Part shown: positions 6,828 through 24,155 of the stretch, in pieces | Position numbering within the stretch: the stretch's first letter is position 1 | Layout of the letters: each line of letters opens with the position of its first letter | Origin: a virus | Lineage: Duplodnaviria; Heunggongvirae; Uroviricota; Caudoviricetes | IMG/VR virus record: IMGVR_UViG_2724679239_000009 | Coordinates: 1-30,614 of that record | Reading direction: 5' to 3' (one strand) | Length of the DNA stretch: 30,614 bases | Translations under genes and position numbers: made by a program | The notes under the pieces: generated by a model | Told to the model about the DNA's origin: nothing | The model's input: only the letters and a program-made list of their open reading frames with translations | The model's database searches: none

Positions 6828-8045
6828 TTATTTGCCAGTGAGCGCCTTGATGGCTGCCACATCTTCCAGCACACAGTCAAAACGATGGAAAGCCAGAAAT
6901 GCCACCTGATCAAACTCAGCATAACGCTCAACCAGACGTTTCAGTTCCATATAAGTAACGCGGCGAATGATAAAGCGGTTGAAATCCCCCAGGAAAATGA
7001 ATTTTTTTCCGGTACCAATCCCGTCAATAGCCTGATCAATAACATAAGGGATCCCCAGCACAGTAGCCGGCGTACCGCCTGCAATATCCGGCAGCCATAA
7101 CGGGCGTTTCTGTCCATCCTCCATCTCTTCAATAGTCTGCAATGTGGCATCATTGAATGCCCAGCGGTATTTCGGCCCACCACGATATGCCGGATCAATG
7201 GCATGTTTCAGGGCATTCATTTCTTTCCAGGTGAAAGCGGCAGAGGCTGCAGTCTGGATGGTTCCCGTCACCGACGCTGCCAGCCCTTTTGGCTGTAACG
7301 GTGATCCCGTTCCGGTCCCCTGAACCAGATATTTTGCCTCTCCACGACCAATACGCTGGGCAATACGGTTTGCCAGATAAGATTCAATATCCACCCCACT
7401 ATCCTGGAGCAGCTCATTGGACACACGAATTATTTTTGATGACAGCTTTTTAGCCCCCAGAATAGCGGTCCCGAACGTCACATCTTGTTCCGTTGCGGCT
7501 GTATTTTCCGCCAGCAGTTCGCCCTCTTCAGTCGTGCCATCAGACGTTGACCAGGTGATATCCTGCCCGGTTGATGTGGTCAGAAGTTGCGCCACACTGG
7601 CAATCCCGCCATAAGCCTTCATGGTGTCAATGATTTTGTTACGCATCTGCGTGGGCACCGTATATCCGCCCTGAGAATCCGTTGTTACACTCTGAGCCCG
7701 CAGTTCACACATCAGATTACGCTCTTCAGCATTCAGTTCTGCAAATCCGGCACGCAGAAAACGGTTAAATGCCGCAGCGCGCTTCTCTTCCACCGCCTTT
7801 TTCCCGTTCTCCGCCTCATTATTCTGGCGCTCTTCCGGCCCGGACTCATCCACATATGCCTGATCCTGACGGCGCAACTCTTCTTCACGGGCGATTTGCT
7901 CATCCAGCGCATCCAGCTCAGCTTTCGCCCTGTTCCACTCTGCCCGTTGCTCATCAGTCCATGCGTTATCACCAATTTTTTCATGCAGTGCACGCATATC
8001 CTTTGCAATGGTGTTTCGTTTTTGCTTCATCTCATGAAGTTTCAT
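6828..8045 (-). CDS. Major capsid protein, HK97 fold, with N-terminal delta (scaffold) domain
   Basis: 405 aa. N-terminal about 110 aa is charged coiled-coil, followed by a capsid body. Follows the prohead protease. Confidence 0.9.
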   Translation of the reverse strand: MKLHEMKQKRNTIAKDMRALHEKIGDNAWTDEQRAEWNRAKAELDALDEQIAREEELRRQDQAYVDESGPEERQNNEAENGKKAVEEKRAAAFNRFLRAGFAELNAEERNLMCELRAQSVTTDSQGGYTVPTQMRNKIIDTMKAYGGIASVAQLLTTSTGQDITWSTSDGTTEEGELLAENTAATEQDVTFGTAILGAKKLSSKIIRVSNELLQDSGVDIESYLANRIAQRIGRGEAKYLVQGTGTGSPLQPKGLAASVTGTIQTAASAAFTWKEMNALKHAIDPAYRGGPKYRWAFNDATLQTIEEMEDGQKRPLWLPDIAGGTPATVLGIPYVIDQAIDGIGTGKKFIFLGDFNRFIIRRVTYMELKRLVERYAEFDQVAFLAFHRFDCVLEDVAAIKALTGK

Positions 8046-8059
8046 CGTCAGTAGTATCC

Positions 8060-8659: not shown

Positions 8660-9749
8660 CGTTCTTTTCCTCTTTGCCTTTCGTATCTTTAAAATCATTC
8701 AACGGATTTGCTGCATTTACGCTGACCAGCATTTCATCCAGACCATCAACCGGGTTCATGTCCTCAAATGCCCTGGCTTCATTCCGGCTCATCCAGCCAT
8801 CTGTAATGGCAAAGTGATAAAACTGCGCACGCTCCTGTGGAGTCCCGCGGAGCAATCCTGTAAGGTTGAAACGAACGTAATACCCGGCAGCCCGTTCTGT
8901 GCGGGTAAACAGGCGACGGTTAAGCTCCTGCTCCCAGTTCGCAACCCAGGGCATCATCGTGTAGCGAACAAACTGAATCGCCTGCTGTGTAATATTCGAA
9001 AATGTGGCTTTTTCCAGGTCATTAATCATGTGCGCCGGGACATTAAAAATTCCGGCAATCATCGACCGGTTCAGCTTGGTCATATCAATGATCTGAGCAT
9101 CCACCGGAGAAACTGTCAGGGCACGGTAATCCAGTTGCGCAGGCAGCAGCATGGTTTTATTTTCCTGACTGCGAAGCGCTGTCACCGCCCGCTGCCACAT
9201 ATTCTTGAGCCTGCTCCAACTCTGTTCGTTCAGTTCATTTTTCACAGAGATAATCCCGGCAGGACGGGCATTACCGTTAAAAAAAGCACTGGTATACTGC
9301 TGACCACTCATTCCCATACCAATGGTTTCAGCATGCTGCATGATCGGACTCAGTCCCATTTTCTGATTGTTTCCCAGCGCCCTGATATGGATCATATCGT
9401 CCGGACTTACCGCAAATGCCCCCTCTTCGTTATACACCCCGTAGGTATGACGCCCACCAGTATTAAGTAACGTGGTTTCCCATGGCATACAGCATTCAAG
9501 ACTGGTAACCTCGCCACGACGATTACGTTTTACCCACGTATAACCATTGCCCCACCCCAGCACATGACGCTGCTTCAGTTCCCGCCACTTATAGCTGGTC
9601 TGCCAGGCATTAGGTTCATCATGAACGAGCCAGAACAACGGATGATCGCGTGCCGGCTGAACATGCTCATTCGTTTTTCGCATCACATGCAGGGGCATCT
9701 GAGCCACACTGGATGAAATAACATAAATACAGGCATAGACAGCAGCCAG
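8652..9749 (-). pseudogene. Portal protein, C-terminal 365 codons, cut off from its start by IS2
   Basis: The portal reading frame runs straight out of the IS2 terminal repeat. The listed ORF start at 9776 lies inside IS2 and is an artefact. Confidence 0.85.
9745..9749. repeat. IS2 target-site duplication GCCAG (left copy)
   Basis: The 5 bp immediately flanking both IS2 ends are identical (GCCAG at 9745-9749 and 11081-11085). Confidence 0.85.
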
Positions 9750-18914: not shown

Positions 18915-20021
18915 TCAAACAATCTGGAAAATATTTCTTGGATTTGTAATAGGTCTGTTGATGGAGAACAACTCACGAATTAAATCTTGGCTCAAGCCAG
19001 TTTTCATAAGAATTCTTAGCCAGGTTGCATCATCCAGCATTTCAATCGCCTCGGCCAGCATGCCGGGTTCTTCAGGGCGCAAAAGTTCATCACCAGGTTC
19101 AACTCTCGTATACCCTCTGGAATTAAGATGCATATAGCCAGTTCTTGCCTGTTCCTGGGTCAATAAGCCTAATGCGCTGGCTCGATAAATACACATTTTA
19201 AGGCTGATTTTCCATCTAAGTTTAAATTCAACCAGAGCATTCCAGTCGAATTGCTTACCTCGTATTCGTGGAAATTCTTTAATGAAAGATAACCTGGGAA
19301 CTAATAAGGCGCTCGAAAAGTGATCGGCTTGAGATTCCGTAAGTTTATCACCTGTCGTTATGCCCTCATGCATTACTAAATGCCCTAATTCATGACCTAA
19401 ATCAGAGCGAAATCTACATATGCTTTTTTTAACATTGTTCCTGATGATAACAGGCCTGTTATTGTGAACAGTAAAAGCATCAACACGATCATCGACTCCC
19501 GTAACATGCGCAACGATTACCCCTAAACTCTCCGCCAATTTAACCATTGATGATATAGGGCCAAGACCTAAATTCCAGGCACGGCGACAATCTTCTGCCA
19601 CTCGCTCAATATCATTCGGAGTAAGTAATTCAGCCCCTGGGTGCTCCGGTATGTTAACGTCAGGAAATTCGATTTCACCTTCAACAGCAGAAATTATAAT
19701 ATTAAGAATCTCAGCCCTGGCCAATACACTATTAGTCAGCGTTTGAGTCCTGGACTTCTTACTCCGAAAATGGCAGACATCACTTTCCAGAGCGTATTTT
19801 CGTTCAGTAAAAAGAAAACTGGACTTAATCATAAGCGCTGAAGATATTAACTCAAGACATTGCTCCGATGGCCTGCACCCCTTCTCCAGTTTGCTAACGA
19901 ATTGCTTTGTCTTGCCAATTTTTTCGGCTAACTCTTCACAAGAAAGCCCAACAGCCATTCTCGCTAGTTTGAGCTTATCACCCCGATACTCAGTGAAGTT
20001 ATTCACCTGATGTTCCATCAC
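18915..20021 (-). CDS. Fusion protein: N-terminal Xre-type HTH plus ImmA/IrrE (COG2856-like) zinc metallopeptidase
   Basis: HTH segment LKLARMAVGLSCEELAEKIGKTKQFVSKLEKG; central HEXXH zinc motif (GHELGHLVMHEG). AT-rich codon usage. Start overlaps the upstream gene by 23 nt. Confidence 0.75.
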   Translation of the reverse strand: MMEHQVNNFTEYRGDKLKLARMAVGLSCEELAEKIGKTKQFVSKLEKGCRPSEQCLELISSALMIKSSFLFTERKYALESDVCHFRSKKSRTQTLTNSVLARAEILNIIISAVEGEIEFPDVNIPEHPGAELLTPNDIERVAEDCRRAWNLGLGPISSMVKLAESLGVIVAHVTGVDDRVDAFTVHNNRPVIIRNNVKKSICRFRSDLGHELGHLVMHEGITTGDKLTESQADHFSSALLVPRLSFIKEFPRIRGKQFDWNALVEFKLRWKISLKMCIYRASALGLLTQEQARTGYMHLNSRGYTRVEPGDELLRPEEPGMLAEAIEMLDDATWLRILMKTGLSQDLIRELFSINRPITNPRNIFQIV

Positions 20022-20649
20022 TGCTCACATCCAAATCTTTATCCTTCGTACGCCGACGAAGAGGCACCTTATTAATCTCCGCTTCGTCAGGGAGTGTGTT
20101 ATAATCAAGAGGCATAAGCGGCATCGATGCTGTAGATTGATGAGAAACTATACTAATCTGAGCACCATAAGTATTAAATCCAACAAGAGCTACCTCCCAA
20201 CGAGGCAGTGTGGACTCTAATTCACCATCGCCCTCTTCGGATAAAAAAGGCTCAGCTATGACTCGCCATGTAATATCTTGCTCAGCCTCAACATCACCAA
20301 ACAATGAGAGCTGCTCATACTCTACTTTATTTCGACGCAGACGATGTTTCTTTTTGGGGTTATTAATGCAATCTTTGGTAAATTGTAGCGGAACTTTATT
20401 TAAAGCAACTACATAGTCCAACCCCTTGGAAATCATCTCAAGGCCAGGAATTGCATCTTCATTTTGAATAAGATGATTTCTGACCCAATCATAAGCCCTT
20501 ACACCTTCAGACCAGTTGCTGTCTAATGCGTGCTTATGATAGTACAGCTGCTCAAGTACGTTAGCGATCTCCGCCAACAAGTGGCGAACATAGTTTTCAG
20601 CAAGATAAGGTTGAAATTCCCAACAAGGAGCTAACTGATTTTCATTCAT
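19999..20649 (-). CDS. Hypothetical protein (216 aa), first gene of a two-gene accessory operon
   Basis: ORF with acidic C-terminus and no motif I recognise. A consensus -35 hexamer TTGACA (minus strand, 20708-20713) lies upstream. Confidence 0.6.
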   Translation of the reverse strand: MNENQLAPCWEFQPYLAENYVRHLLAEIANVLEQLYYHKHALDSNWSEGVRAYDWVRNHLIQNEDAIPGLEMISKGLDYVVALNKVPLQFTKDCINNPKKKHRLRRNKVEYEQLSLFGDVEAEQDITWRVIAEPFLSEEGDGELESTLPRWEVALVGFNTYGAQISIVSHQSTASMPLMPLDYNTLPDEAEINKVPLRRRTKDKDLDVSSDGTSGE

Positions 20650-20730
20650 TTCAAGTTTCGCTTTTTTTAGAATTCGTAAACCACATATTTTCGCATTTTT
20701 CTATTTTTGTCAACCAGACTAATGCAAAAA

Positions 20731-20744
20731 CCCGCCGAAGCGGG
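20731..20744 (-). terminator. Intrinsic terminator (minus strand) after the hok gene
   Basis: cccgc-cgaa-gcggg hairpin followed by T-run on the minus strand. Confidence 0.7.
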
Positions 20745-20814
20745 TTAAGTGCGGGTGCGTTGAGGATGCCTGGCACATCAGAGGTGGCGGGAGATTACTC
20801 CCCCGCCGGGTCTC

Positions 20815-20970
20815 TTACTCCTCAGGTTCGTAAGCTGTGAAGACAGCGACCTCCGTCTGGCCGGTTCGGATTCGTACCTCGCAGAGGTCTTTCCTCGTTA
20901 CCAGTGCCGTCACTATGACGGTTAAACAGATGACGATCAGGGCGATTAACATCGCCTTTTGCTGCTTCAT
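20815..20970 (-). CDS. hokD: Hok-family membrane toxin (HokD/RelF-like, 51 aa)
   Basis: Hand translation MKQQKAMLIALIVICLTVIVTALVTRKDLCEVRIRTGQTEVAVFTAYEPEE, with AAGGAG RBS. Matches the Hok family and HokD as I recall it. Too short for the supplied ORF track. Confidence 0.85.
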   Translation of the reverse strand: MKQQKAMLIALIVICLTVIVTALVTRKDLCEVRIRTGQTEVAVFTAYEPEE

Positions 20971-21341
20971 AGCCTGCTTCTCCTTGACCTTTTGGTCCGT
21001 AAGAGGCTAATCTCTATGTGTCGCATAGATATGGCCTCAGATTAATGTTAAGCGTCTTGCAGGACGCGTAATGTTAACTGGGGCTTTTCTCTATCTGCCT
21101 TTTGGTGTTCATGCCTGAGGCAGATAGCCTCAAGCACCCACAGCAATTCTACTTAACTCCCGCCACCTCGCCAATATAAAATCAATCAGAAAGGCGATCC
21201 ATAAGAACAATAGCAAGACAATAAATTGCCACTACAGCCGCAATAGCCAGCGCGCATTTGAGAACCAGCACGATAACCTCCTGTATTGGACGTACACCAG
21301 CTCTGATAAATATGAGGCTGCCTCTTTAACTTCGCATTGCG

Positions 21342-22373
21342 CTACCAATCAATAAAATCAGTGATGTTATCCAACCTAATTACAGTAACTTCCCGTCTCA
21401 ACTGGTTTTTCCAATATATCTCACGAGCGTTTTGTTCACCAGCACCGCTCCACTCAATTACTCTTAAAGGCTTAGAGGTTAGGTAAGGTCGAATAAGCAG
21501 GTTAAGGTGAATATCGAGACCAGAGTAACCAAACAATATTATTTCTTCTGATTCAAATAATGCAAACTGCAAATAATCCCAGTACGTAGAAAGAACATTA
21601 GATGCTGCTATAACTGACGGTTTTCTTTTTATATGAGTTAACACTATATGCTCACTAGGTTCATCTATGTCAAGAGTAAGTTGTGAGCGTGAAAGTTTTA
21701 AAACATTTTCATGCTGATTAATAAATAGTGGTGAACCATGCAAGTGCAAATAATAACCAAACCTACGATTGTATTTCCGTTCGAGCGCTGCAGAGGAAAA
21801 TCCGTGGCTTAGCATCCCATCAACTAAAACCCCATCATACCCGTTGAATATATCATTATCTATGAATGAATTGTATAATAATTTGTCATAGTTTAATGTC
21901 GCGATATGTGAGTGTGTGTTCTTTACAAACTCCACAAGCGCATTTTCGAATCTTTGTGGCAAACCTTTATCGTAATTATGCAACCTGGTTGCAACTTTGT
22001 GAATATAAGTGGCGGTAATTTTGGGGAAGTTTAGTCCATCTTCAGTAAGCCAATGCACGTTCCCCTCTCCAATTTGAGCAAGAGCTTTACAATATGTGAC
22101 AGCCTGGTGAAGGGTATCCAACTCATGTTCTCCTTCTGGTGGACCTTGCCGCTGAAGACAACGCTCGATAAGTTGCTTGTGGATATCTTTTAAAAAATTG
22201 GGGCGATGCCAAATTTCTTCCAACGCTCTGTCTAAGGAGAAGTGAGCAGGATCTAAAGCCATACCGAGACCGTTGCCGAATATTATTAATTTTCTTGCCA
22301 TATAGGGGGACTCATATTGGAATAACGCTGGATAGCGTCGCGCGATACGCTTAAGTTTAGGATTAATAGACAT
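21342..22373 (-). CDS. SIR2-like (SIR2_2 / DHS-like NAD-binding fold) protein, candidate NAD+-consuming defence effector
   Basis: 343 aa. Motifs in the expected order: glycine-rich IIFGNGLGMA near the N-terminus, TLNYDKLL (sirtuin TQNID/TTNYD-like), LHLHGS (catalytic His-Gly), ILFGYSGLD. Strongly AT-rich with an AT-rich 370-bp upstream region. Confidence 0.6.
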   Translation of the reverse strand: MSINPKLKRIARRYPALFQYESPYMARKLIIFGNGLGMALDPAHFSLDRALEEIWHRPNFLKDIHKQLIERCLQRQGPPEGEHELDTLHQAVTYCKALAQIGEGNVHWLTEDGLNFPKITATYIHKVATRLHNYDKGLPQRFENALVEFVKNTHSHIATLNYDKLLYNSFIDNDIFNGYDGVLVDGMLSHGFSSAALERKYNRRFGYYLHLHGSPLFINQHENVLKLSRSQLTLDIDEPSEHIVLTHIKRKPSVIAASNVLSTYWDYLQFALFESEEIILFGYSGLDIHLNLLIRPYLTSKPLRVIEWSGAGEQNAREIYWKNQLRREVTVIRLDNITDFIDW

Positions 22374-22741
22374 TCCGTTTGATTACACTTGTTATTACAA
22401 ACTTGCATGCAAAGAAGCCCAAGCTGTTAGGTAAACAGAGACCGCAGTGGCAAGATAATCTAGATATAGCCTATAAAATCCAACAACAAATAGCGGCCTG
22501 TTTTCTATGACTTTTCTTTTCCCTAAATATCGCTTATCTAATAAAATGCAATAATGTATTGCACAGTATTTAATGTGTATTAATATAGATAAGTATTGGT
22601 CTTATTTGATAACAAATCCTGAGCCTCAAAATGTCTGCTTTTCACACAAAACCAACAAGTAGGCTATTTTTAGCTCTGTGCCGCGAAAATGTCAATTCAT
22701 ATCCGAACCAATACTCTTTAATTTCATTACCTGTGACAATT

Positions 22742-23149
22742 CTAGGCATATCCCTGATAGAACGCCAATACACGCTGCATAACTTCGCTCTTCCGGCACT
22801 CGCGACAGATTATGTTCATACGCCTGTCGTAGCGGCGTATTTCTCCGTCGGGTAATGTCCAGATAAGGCCCGGATCAACCACAACAGGTTTCTTCACCTT
22901 TGCCCTCGAGAGTTTTTTGCGGGCGTTTTGCCAGTCCTTACGAGCCCGTTCTGACGGGAACACCCCATAGCCAGAGTGATATACATCACCACTGGCAACC
23001 AGCTCTCTGGCAAGAACGCTCATCAGATATCTTGTCGCACCTGTTTTAGCTTCCAGTTGCCGTAACGTCTCACGACCGCTCTGGCGCACGAGTTCCACCA
23101 CCTGTCCTTTAATTTTTTCCCGCTCTTCCTGTGTAAATACTTTTGCCAT
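22742..23149 (-). CDS. Ren-like protein
   Basis: The C-terminus ...ICRECRKSEVMQRVLAFYQGYA resembles the lambda Ren C-terminus as I recall it, and the gene follows the replication gene as ren does in lambda. Confidence 0.45.
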   Translation of the reverse strand: MAKVFTQEEREKIKGQVVELVRQSGRETLRQLEAKTGATRYLMSVLARELVASGDVYHSGYGVFPSERARKDWQNARKKLSRAKVKKPVVVDPGLIWTLPDGEIRRYDRRMNIICRECRKSEVMQRVLAFYQGYA

Positions 23150-23189
23150 AAGTCCTCCTGAACATTACTTTATGCCCTAAAATCACCAC

Positions 23190-24155
23190 TTATCCCCTGA
23201 AACCAGGCGGAATTTCGGTATCCGGTTCAGAAATATGATTCACACAACACTGTACAGGTGAACGCCCCAGGCGGATGACCAGGTCGTCCCATTTTTCGCG
23301 AAGCTTTGACGGGCTCATGATGTTTTTTACCCAGAATGGATCTCGCTGTACCCGACCAAACATTTCGCAAATTTGTCTGTGGCTTCTGCCATCCAGCATC
23401 CGCATTGTGCGCACGTCATTGGCCCATGCGGTCCAGTTTGGTTCTTTCGGTCGCGTGATCTCGCCATCATCGCTGGCAGCCTGCTCGTAAAGACTCACGA
23501 TTCGTCCCCAGATCCACTGTGCGCACGCCAAATCTTCCTGACTTCCCCACTGGCGTTTTTTCGCACTGAACACAACCGCGTCAGGGTGTCGGGTTAAAAA
23601 ATCCTGTTCAGCCGTCTGCGGGTCCGGTTGCGAAGCTTCCGGACGAGAAGTGTTTTTATTCTCTGTAGTAATCTCTGTTGTATTCTCTGTAAGATCATCA
23701 GGCCATTTTGACCCGATGACATTGGGTCGTTTTGAACCAATGGAGCGTGCCATTTTGACCTCTTCCATCGTGTCATTTTGACCCGATGGAGCGGCGCATT
23801 TTGACCTGATGGATTCGCTCACTTTGCCACCATCTAAAAGCTCACTCTCGTAATTAATCGTGTAAAAATTAGTCATATCACGCTTTGATTTGTTGAGCTT
23901 TTCGCAACGCAAAAGCCCCAGCGTTTTCAGACTTGCAAATGCGCGTTTTAACGTTGACTCTGACCAGAACGGGAACTGTTCCAGCCATTGTTCTGTTGTG
24001 TTATAAATCCAGCGAACCCCGTCACATTCCATACCGGAACTGGTATCTCTCAACCAGTAATGCAACTGCTGCAACACAATGGCTTCATTTAAGCCAATCT
24101 TCATCGCAAGCTGTGTGTTTATAACCAGTGGGCGTTCAGCAAAAAGAAGGCTCAT
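23190..24155 (-). CDS. Replication initiator (O-like replisome organiser) with internal origin iterons
   Basis: N-terminal DNA-binding-like region, low-complexity linker (ENTTEITTENKNTSRPEASQPDPQ), and an iteron array inside the coding sequence. Start placed at MSLLFAERP (24155) to avoid a 74-nt overlap; 24209 is the alternative. Confidence 0.65.
   Translation of the reverse strand: MSLLFAERPLVINTQLAMKIGLNEAIVLQQLHYWLRDTSSGMECDGVRWIYNTTEQWLEQFPFWSESTLKRAFASLKTLGLLRCEKLNKSKRDMTNFYTINYESELLDGGKVSESIRSKCAAPSGQNDTMEEVKMARSIGSKRPNVIGSKWPDDLTENTTEITTENKNTSRPEASQPDPQTAEQDFLTRHPDAVVFSAKKRQWGSQEDLACAQWIWGRIVSLYEQAASDDGEITRPKEPNWTAWANDVRTMRMLDGRSHRQICEMFGRVQRDPFWVKNIMSPSKLREKWDDLVIRLGRSPVQCCVNHISEPDTEIPPGFRG
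23704..23813. repeat. Origin-type iterons: five copies of CATTTTGACC(N)GATGGA-like repeats at 23-24 bp spacing
   Basis: Copies start at 23704, 23728 (degenerate), 23751, 23774, 23797. They are followed at 23660-23694 by three TCTCTGT repeats at 12-bp spacing. Confidence 0.8.

Follow-up and report, generated by a model that had tools for sequence, protein, structure and literature searches.

A standalone SIR2-family gene carried as compact mobile cargo in a lambdoid prophage: a candidate partner-free defense NADase

The DNA analyzed here, referred to below as the window, is a lambdoid prophage sequence of 30,614 nt (IMG/VR virus record IMGVR_UViG_2724679239_000009, positions 1 to 30,614) that carries a SIR2-like gene on its minus strand, between a DUF977 gene and the hokD toxin gene. 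The SIR2-like gene, which most likely encodes a protein of 319 amino acids (aa), has no dedicated partner gene and is mobile as a ∼1.3-kb unit that includes its upstream DNA, both in a prophage slot of variable content and in other mobile contexts. Judged from its sequence and predicted fold, the protein is quite probably an enzyme that consumes nicotinamide adenine dinucleotide (NAD), and an antiphage role is somewhat favored. The preferred reading, in which this defense-type SIR2 enzyme is an autonomous and autoinhibited NADase carried as prophage cargo, is as a full chain evenly poised between acceptance and doubt.

An immune-type SIR2 fold with a predicted catalytic set

Assignment of the protein to the SIR2/DHS-like fold, which the original prediction had drawn from four sequence motifs, is close to certain. 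The motifs were present as quoted, IIFGNGLGMA at residues 30 to 39, TLNYDKLL at 159 to 166, LHLHGS at 209 to 214, and ILFGYSGLD at 279 to 287 (counted from the first ATG of a 343-aa open reading frame, or ORF; this numbering is used throughout). They are not due to chance and were the most conserved positions in an alignment of 50 relatives that were 57 to 88% identical. Invariant in this alignment were N161, D163, H210, H212, G213, S214, G282, Y283, G285, D287, H289, and N291, and G33, N34, G35, and G37 were conserved in at least 90% of the sequences. The Asn-x-Asp...His set predicted to be catalytic is intact. By profile, Pfam SIR2_2 (PF13289) matched the window protein marginally, at 26.1 bits against a gathering cutoff of 24.5, and matched 50 of the 50 relatives, with a best E value of 2.9e-8. 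Among the PADLOC profiles, the window protein scored 24 bits with Aga_SIR2, 23.5 bits with PDC-S21, and 20 bits with SIR2. None of the NCBIfam models matched it, and searches of the PDB by sequence, with the protein and with the family profile, retrieved no SIR2; there, only the comparison of folds succeeded.

For the fold comparison, an AlphaFold2 model was built from the alignment (predicted local distance difference test score, 87.3; predicted template modeling score, 0.87). The predicted structure is a Rossmann-type fold that superposes on solved SIR2 domains. In Foldseek searches against the PDB, the best matches were SIR2 subunits of SIR2-HerA, also known as Nezha (8SUB, 8UAE, 8WLD, 8J4U, and 8W9L; E values of 5e-11 to 1e-8), followed by ThsA (1e-6), human FAM118B (5e-6), SPARSA (5e-4), and human SIRT2/3 (∼1e-3). 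Further structure-comparison figures were 19.0 for PsSIR2 (8W9L; 273 residues aligned), 18.3 for 8YHX, 17.4 for EcSIR2 (8J4U), 14.3 each for KomC and ThsA, 13.1 for Af-Sir2, 12.4 for Avs5, 11.1 for FAM118B, and 11.0 for SirTM. The deacylase sirtuins were not the closest structural neighbors. The original prediction was to be given up if neither profile nor structure resembled the SIR2 fold; resemblance was found by both, and the best Foldseek matches were SIR2 proteins of defense systems.

The SIR2 fold spans residue ∼26 to the C terminus, and there is no other Pfam domain in the protein. In the model, a five-helix insertion lies between strand 1 (residues 28 to 32) and strand 2 (residues 156 to 159), and its predicted position is that of the small domain of PsSIR2. 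The model has the fold of a SIR2-HerA subunit, including a predicted counterpart of the autoinhibiting small domain. The whole protein contains two cysteines (C72 and C95), of which only C95 is invariant, and no CxxC pair. This means that the zinc ribbon, or Cys4 module, of sirtuins is absent. On the basis of the structural comparison, with which the cysteine content agrees, the protein belongs to the immune-type SIR2 domains, for which Bonhomme et al. (10.1101/2024.09.18.613514) use the term “sirims,” rather than to the sirtuins with deacetylase activity. The fold assignment itself is already known, since the product carries the label “SIR2 family protein” from the Prokaryotic Genome Annotation Pipeline (PGAP). 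What sets the protein apart is a Nezha-type SIR2 without HerA, whose fold fills all 319 aa and leaves no room for a separate sensor.

Coding region and composition of the gene

Counted from the first ATG, the ORF is intact (21342..22373, minus strand) and gives the 343-aa product of the original prediction. The ORF stood; its length probably did not, because the true start is most likely Met25, at 22301, which yields 319 aa. Several features of the sequence point to this start. First, the 24-codon upstream extension has no coding signature. Its substitutions were spread over the three codon positions as 72/69/85, with 25 synonymous to 114 nonsynonymous codon changes among five in-frame sequences, compared to 367/274/1113 and 894:525 for the core. 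Second, the extension is in frame in most close enterobacterial relatives and is interrupted by in-frame stops in Serratia and, as read from alignments, in Pantoea, where the stops leave a 16-codon upstream ORF. Third, the PGAP product (WP_000101550.1) is 319 aa long, most relatives are 319 to 320 aa and start at the equivalent of Met25, and the family profile has 319 positions. Finally, Shine-Dalgarno-like sequences (AAGAGG, GGGAG, or TGAGT) stand 7 to 9 nt ahead of Met25. The 343-aa reading was dropped for Met25 on the codon-position analysis and the stops in relatives. Taken together, these features place the coding region at 22301..21342 and positions 22302-22373 in a conserved 5′ leader.

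Since synonymous changes outnumber nonsynonymous ones in the core and the third-position bias is strong, the gene is taken to be functional, and the pattern of substitutions shows purifying selection. The original prediction of AT-rich codon usage and of a separate AT-rich upstream region also held. The GC content of the gene is 0.39, and 0.35 at third codon positions (GC3), compared to 0.49 for the whole window; in the upstream intergenic region (22374-22741), it is 0.34. For comparison, GC and GC3 are 0.51 and 0.53 in the DUF977 gene and 0.48 and 0.50 in the replication-like gene. A leader of ∼215 nt (up to ∼22517) contains conserved sequence blocks. A structured leader RNA, such as a riboswitch-like element or an attenuator, was considered and rejected (single-sequence z-score, −0.02; consensus energy, −3.4 kcal/mol).

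A 1.3-kb unit in a variable prophage slot

The extent of the moving DNA could be read from two comparisons. The flanks common to prophages with other cargo break off at 21324 toward hok and at 22630-22676 toward DUF977, and a nonprophage locus (L086), whose context is unrelated, shares the window from 22650 to 21328 as a single block at 87% identity. Therefore, the unit that moves is ∼1.3 kb long (Table 1). Within its upstream part, a clade-conserved sigma-70-like element consists of TTGCAT (22551-22546), a 16-nt spacer, and TATTTA (22529-22524), with a score of 8/12, and has a counterpart in Pantoea (TTGAAT-17-TATATT); it is a putative promoter of the gene. The best match to the promoter consensus (TTGACA-18-AAAAAT at 22695..22666; 10/12) lies in the shared flank, and this putative promoter may read into whichever cargo fills the slot.

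Lambdoid prophages vary in the cargo that fills the slot between DUF977 and hokD. DUF977 was found in 4016 of 5426 complete Escherichia coli genomes, and parts of a 20600-23200 query, the hokD/sok flank included, matched in 4816 of the same genomes, compared to just 46 for the SIR2 unit. Among these 46 were O55:H7, O111:H2, and swine enterotoxigenic E. coli (ETEC). The exact protein also occurs in Escherichia albertii (L003) and in eight IMG/VR contigs, and a second lambdoid prophage (L100) has an 87%-identical allele in the same slot. Other contents of the slot, where sampled, were a GIY-YIG nuclease, a zeta toxin with hypothetical proteins, QueH, and DUF4145 with hypothetical proteins. In the Qin prophage of K-12, relB-relE lies immediately upstream of hokD, as the original prediction had stated. 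Both sides of hokD are variable when the window (20600-23200) is compared with L080-L084; the slot between hokD and DUF968 holds RosmerTA or rem. No paper describing this hokD-flanking hotspot was found in the literature searched.

Table 1 Coordinates of the SIR2 unit and of its neighbors in the window
Feature	Position	Strand	Remarks
SIR2-like gene, most likely coding region	21342..22301	-	319 aa, begins MARKLIIFGNG; catalytic candidates N161, D163, H212 (343-aa ORF numbering)
24-codon in-frame upstream extension	22302..22373	-	Probably 5′ leader, not coding; conservation at the nucleotide level, conserved ATG
AT-rich upstream DNA traveling with the gene	22374..22650	-	GC 0.34; conserved across the enterobacterial clade
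Whole mobile cargo unit	21328..22650	.	∼350 nt of upstream DNA, the ORF, and ∼14 nt past the stop codon
Prophage-shared flank downstream of DUF977	22651..22741	-	Common to L081-L084, which have other cargo
DUF977 gene	22742..23149	-	Pfam DUF977, 1.7e-29; conserved left-hand border of the cargo slot; context only
hokD toxin gene	20815..20970	-	Pfam HOK_GEF, 1.2e-23; conserved right-hand border of the slot
sok antisense RNA region	20968..21139	-	Rfam sok, 107.5 bits; right-hand border of the slot, with hokD
RosmerTA pair	18915..20649	-	rmrT 19999..20649 and rmrA 18915..20021 (overlapping); PADLOC RmrT 86 bits, RmrA 349 bits

Other phages and an integron-like array

The family also occurs in different phage types at nonhomologous positions, in 18 IMG/VR contigs at identities of 100, 87, 78, 52, 46, and 41%. 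For instance, at ∼52% identity it follows the terminase and portal genes (L103 and L105); in other contigs, it stands beside P2-type tail genes (L102) or beside a DNA methyltransferase gene (L108). Carriage by several unrelated temperate phages would suit a SIR2 that serves the phage and not the host, by consuming NAD-derived immune signals or NAD+ to blunt defenses or by controlling induction of its own prophage, and so would the early-right location, from which, judged by gene order, the gene could be transcribed during lytic growth. Such a role is very improbable. A tblastn search of the 50,697 sequenced phage genomes in INPHARED gave no match, nor did the BFVD viral structure library at E <= 0.001; moreover, most family members lie outside phages, and close homologs are found in chromosomal islets.

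In two of the phage contigs, a small same-strand gene lies directly upstream of the SIR2 gene (L103 5594-5971 and L105 5550-5963). It matches only phrog_34034, a group of unknown function, and by a reading of its sequence its product looks H-NS/MvaT-like. In the same contigs, a conserved gene of unknown function, encoding ∼270 aa, follows shortly downstream of SIR2. These shared neighbors may be the synteny of related phages.

Among plasmids, PLSDB contained a single distant match. A different mobile context was found in Pseudoalteromonas (L008, 6913-8841), where imperfect palindromes with AAC/GTT ends bracket the homolog (6913-6976 and 7995-8050). Similar repeats follow the next small same-strand ORFs, and the segment at 7975-8008 resembles that at 8808-8841. 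By this repeat pattern, which is attC-like, the context looks like an integron cassette array. GTTAAC motifs also occur just upstream of the gene in Photobacterium and Psychromonas (L006 and L009).

No recurrent neighbor across the family

An exhaustive profile search returned 359 clusters (50% identity) at E <= 1e-3 and 198 at E <= 1e-30, and nearly all of the full-length members listed were 310 to 370 aa long. Neighbors were surveyed at 77 loci from species-representative genomes, in which ORFs were called and all neighbors were clustered; ∼100 loci were covered overall, from Gamma-, Beta-, and Alphaproteobacteria and other phyla. Around homologs of at least 46% identity, near-identical genomes aside, no neighbor cluster was recurrent at positions −3 to +3. 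Likewise, in a census of 117 nonredundant neighbors at ±2 against PADLOC and Pfam, no family was present at more than three loci, and no HerA, TIR, pAgo (prokaryotic Argonaute), or STAND was found. In the window, the gene is adjoined by DUF977 and hokD and by no TIR, HerA, SLOG, or pAgo gene, which bears out the original prediction on this point. Its suggestion of a compact single-gene system fits the absence of a recurrent neighbor across the family and a ∼1.3-kb unit that moves alone.

The closest relatives are solitary, each with several hundred bases of empty flank. In L086-L088, the gene adjoins a TacAT module and IS110; in Pantoea (L089), it lies at one end of a P2-like prophage; and in Klebsiella (L090) and Serratia (L002), it is flanked by chromosomal genes. 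Neighbors at individual loci included two HNH nucleases, DUF2971, DUF3800, CHAT, a 680-aa AAA-type ATPase, HsdR, and an IS5 transposase, a heterogeneous set that nevertheless resembles a defense island. The gene for the 680-aa protein, which has a weak AAA_16 P-loop match, is from Serratia plymuthica (L002, 5812-7854), where it precedes the SIR2 homolog by 147 nt in the same orientation. None of the other homologs had it as a neighbor, and it is probably a separate defense-type gene. In Rhodobacteraceae, neighbors did recur and were rejected as partners because they represent housekeeping synteny. At three of these loci (L045, L047, and L072), the homolog, at 37 to 39% identity, lies directly downstream of a gene for a PncB-like nicotinate phosphoribosyltransferase. 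The PncB label, which implies NAD salvage, comes from a reading of the sequence, and the adjacency is probably synteny as well.

These results bear on the possibility that the protein depends, as an NADase effector, on a partner whose gene lies elsewhere, such as a HerA-like ATPase, a host factor, or a product of the resident prophage, and is thus an orphaned or trans-acting half of a system. The SIR2 subunits that it resembles most closely in structure stay inactive until they are bound by HerA, and it has no sensor domain of its own. In addition, some Vibrio members carry an extra N-terminal domain of ∼190 to 220 aa, so the core can evidently work with added modules. A partner in trans is nonetheless unlikely, given that no neighbor recurs in ∼100 loci. 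Such dependence is also hard to sustain because the unit moves alone between unrelated hosts and elements.

Two such Vibrio proteins are P0042 (506 aa, V. parahaemolyticus) and P0044 (541 aa, V. aestuarianus), in which the extra domain measures 187 to 222 aa. The two domains are homologs (E value, 8.5e-12, with 30% identity over 122 aa), matched nothing in Pfam, and were without homologs in the other fetched loci or in the window. A fused sensor is one possibility, and read-through of an upstream cassette ORF is another.

Independence from hok/sok and RosmerTA

The original prediction had allowed that the protein might work with the adjacent hok toxin, and a composite of SIR2 with either hok/sok or RosmerTA would have physical proximity in its favor: hokD is 371 bp downstream of the SIR2 gene, and rmrT/rmrA lie just past hokD. 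The distribution of these genes effectively refutes such a composite, to which we give almost no credence. First, the cargo boundary, at ∼21325-21328, excludes hok/sok. Second, hok/sok is close to universal in these prophages, and parts of the query, the hokD/sok flank included, matched in 4816 E. coli genomes, compared to 46 for the SIR2 unit. Third, SIR2-bearing prophages of ETEC and O111:H2 are without RosmerTA, so the two cargos are independent. Fourth, in ETEC an IS481 element separates SIR2 from hokD. Finally, no homolog elsewhere is adjoined by hok or Rmr genes.

The insertion in ETEC (L110, 617-1690), an IS481-family transposase gene, falls in the hok/sok leader region between hokD and SIR2 and leaves the SIR2 gene intact; it is present in E. 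coli K_EC180 and in a number of swine ETEC strains. The RosmerTA pair, which the original prediction did not mention, lies two genes from the SIR2 gene; rmrA combines a helix-turn-helix domain with Peptidase_M78. With a GC content of 0.42, the pair represents a second low-GC cargo. K-12 Qin carries rem at the RosmerTA position.

Comparison with known SIR2 systems

The closest comparison is with SIR2-HerA (PsSIR2, 8W9L; EcSIR2, 8J4U and 8SUB). PsSIR2 is autoinhibited by its small domain and is inactive without HerA (PMC11472057). The predicted structure of the window protein has the same bilobed plan, with a large Rossmann domain and a small helical domain, and the catalytic N-x-D...H residues are nearly collinear (N161/D163/H212 compared to N163/D165/H212 in PsSIR2). 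However, the window protein is shorter (319 aa compared to 360 to 400), shares only 14 to 15% identity with these proteins, and is not paired in an operon with HerA, which is encoded neither in the window nor beside the ∼100 homologs.

Other defense SIR2 proteins (ThsA, DSR1/DSR2, the SIR2-APAZ protein of SPARSA, Avs5, and KomC) have a sensor or signal-binding module, namely, SLOG or Macro, a large C-terminal domain, pAgo, STAND, or KomB, whereas the window protein has none. Compared to Thoeris ThsA, there is no SLOG or Macro fusion and no TIR (ThsB) gene nearby. DSR1 and DSR2 are ∼1000 aa long with a large C-terminal sensor, compared to 319 to 343 aa here, and neither an APAZ/pAgo partner, as in SPARSA, nor a fused STAND NTPase, as in Avs5, was found in the protein or its neighbors. 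Human FAM118B and FAM118A are vertebrate proteins and are much less similar than the Nezha SIR2. The classical sirtuin deacylases (SIRT1-7 and CobB) have the Zn-binding Cys4 module that is missing here.

A precedent for a single small Sir2-like protein proposed as a complete defense system is sole-Sir2, one of the CRISPR-supervised “CRISIS” systems, a protein of ∼440 aa with NADase activity in vitro and a homolog that protects E. coli against T2 and T4 (10.1101/2024.12.27.630466). Compared by description only, sole-Sir2 has a distinct N-terminal substructure and a DSR2-like C-terminal Sir2, whereas here a Nezha-like Sir2 fold fills the 319 aa. Two further families, the PADLOC candidate PDC-S21 and DUF4917 (PF16263, which includes SliP), are likewise standalone, SIR2-like, and about 320 to 340 aa long. 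PDC-S21, an untested single-gene candidate, matched the window protein over profile positions 18-210 of 336 and matched 43 of the 50 relatives weakly. By sequence, PDC-S21 and the present family appear related and are not demonstrably the same family.

A possible relation to DUF4917 matters for another explanation, in which the protein is a sirtuin-like enzyme that modifies proteins, as a deacylase or an ADP-ribosyltransferase, and acts as a prophage “moron” that alters physiology or virulence through a bacterial, phage, or host cell protein. The DUF4917 profile weakly matches 34 of the 50 relatives (best E value, 7e-8), and SliP, a DUF4917 protein of Campylobacter jejuni, is reported to be a sirtuin-type deacetylase that is secreted into neutrophils (PMC10421069) and not a defense NADase. 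The carriers include pathogens (O55:H7, ETEC, and E. albertii), and some distant homologs lie among housekeeping genes. Against this, the window protein itself has no DUF4917 match at E <= 1; it has two cysteines and no Zn-ribbon Cys4; and the cargo-slot, integron-like, and multiphage contexts are typical of defense genes. This explanation is unlikely, if slightly less so than a partner in trans.

In the literature searched, which included DUF4917, PDC-S21, integron SIR2, and prophage hotspots and whose coverage was incomplete, no study of this SIR2 family was found. The main text of DefensePredictor has no mention of SIR2, sirtuin, NADase, or DUF4917, and a domain-centric screen (NAR 2026) left out single-gene systems.

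Proposed mechanism and significance

In the autonomous-NADase reading, the SIR2 gene would be expressed in the lysogen from its own upstream region. The NADase would be held off by the helical small domain (residues ∼47 to 153, between strands 1 and 2 of the Rossmann fold), by structural analogy with PsSIR2. When another phage infects, a phage-derived cue or a change in oligomeric state would free the active site. The enzyme would then convert NAD+ to ADP-ribose and nicotinamide, which would starve phage replication by abortive infection and thereby protect the lysogen population and the resident prophage. The company that the gene keeps, with GIY-YIG, zeta toxin, QueH, and relBE as alternatives in the slot, RosmerTA nearby, and multiphage and attC-like contexts, suggests such a defense function.

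Several points weigh against this reading. The sequence matches to defense hidden Markov models were all weak (20 to 24 bits), and the sigma-70-like element is a promoter by inference from its motifs. The protein has no sensor domain recognizable by Pfam or in the family profile. Because the closest structural relative is inactive without HerA, a lone version needs its own route of activation, and nothing in the data reveals one. Many neighbors overall are ordinary metabolic genes. The distant Rhodobacteraceae members lie among housekeeping genes (ABC-F ATPase, PncB, enolase, LepA, GyrB, and ArfB) in a setting unlike a defense island. SliP, as described above, is reported as a deacetylase, and no experiment on the family was found in the literature searched.

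To our knowledge, the well-studied SIR2 defense enzymes are all switched on by an attached or partnered sensor, whether SLOG, HerA, pAgo, STAND, or a large C-terminal domain. The present family is widespread, consists of the SIR2 fold only, and behaves as mobile defense cargo, which raises the question of how a lone NADase is kept silent and what activates it. One tentative answer, which we consider somewhat doubtful, is that the protein represents a SIR2 immune system in its smallest complete form, a Nezha-type SIR2 that has shed HerA and in which the same 319 aa would both sense infection, through the small domain or by self-assembly, and deplete NAD+. The gene is compact enough to be mobile both as an integron cassette and as a prophage moron of 1.3 kb. 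If true, this reading would show that a SIR2 NADase can be gated when no sensor is fused to it or paired with it, and the sensorless human FAM118 sirtuins would have in this protein their simplest bacterial counterpart. At 319 aa, the protein is small enough for direct biochemistry and for mapping of escape mutants. The practical value is modest, given the existing SIR2-like annotation and the precedent for a Sir2 defense that consists of one protein. In addition, the comparisons bring out a variable cargo site of lambdoid prophages that has been little described, with toxin-antitoxin, nuclease, and defense genes exchanged on either side of hokD.

Gene setting in the window

The order of genes on the minus strand is cI, cro, a ydaT-like gene, a replication-like gene, DUF977, the SIR2 gene, hokD-sok, rmrT-rmrA, DUF968, RusA, Q, tRNAs, lysis genes, and head and tail genes. 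Two tRNA genes (15613-15763, minus strand) lie between the Q antiterminator region and the lysis genes, a position at which tRNA genes are usual in lambdoid prophages of the enterohemorrhagic E. coli type. The CB9615 relative has three tRNAs (Arg, Arg, and Ile) at the position of these two.

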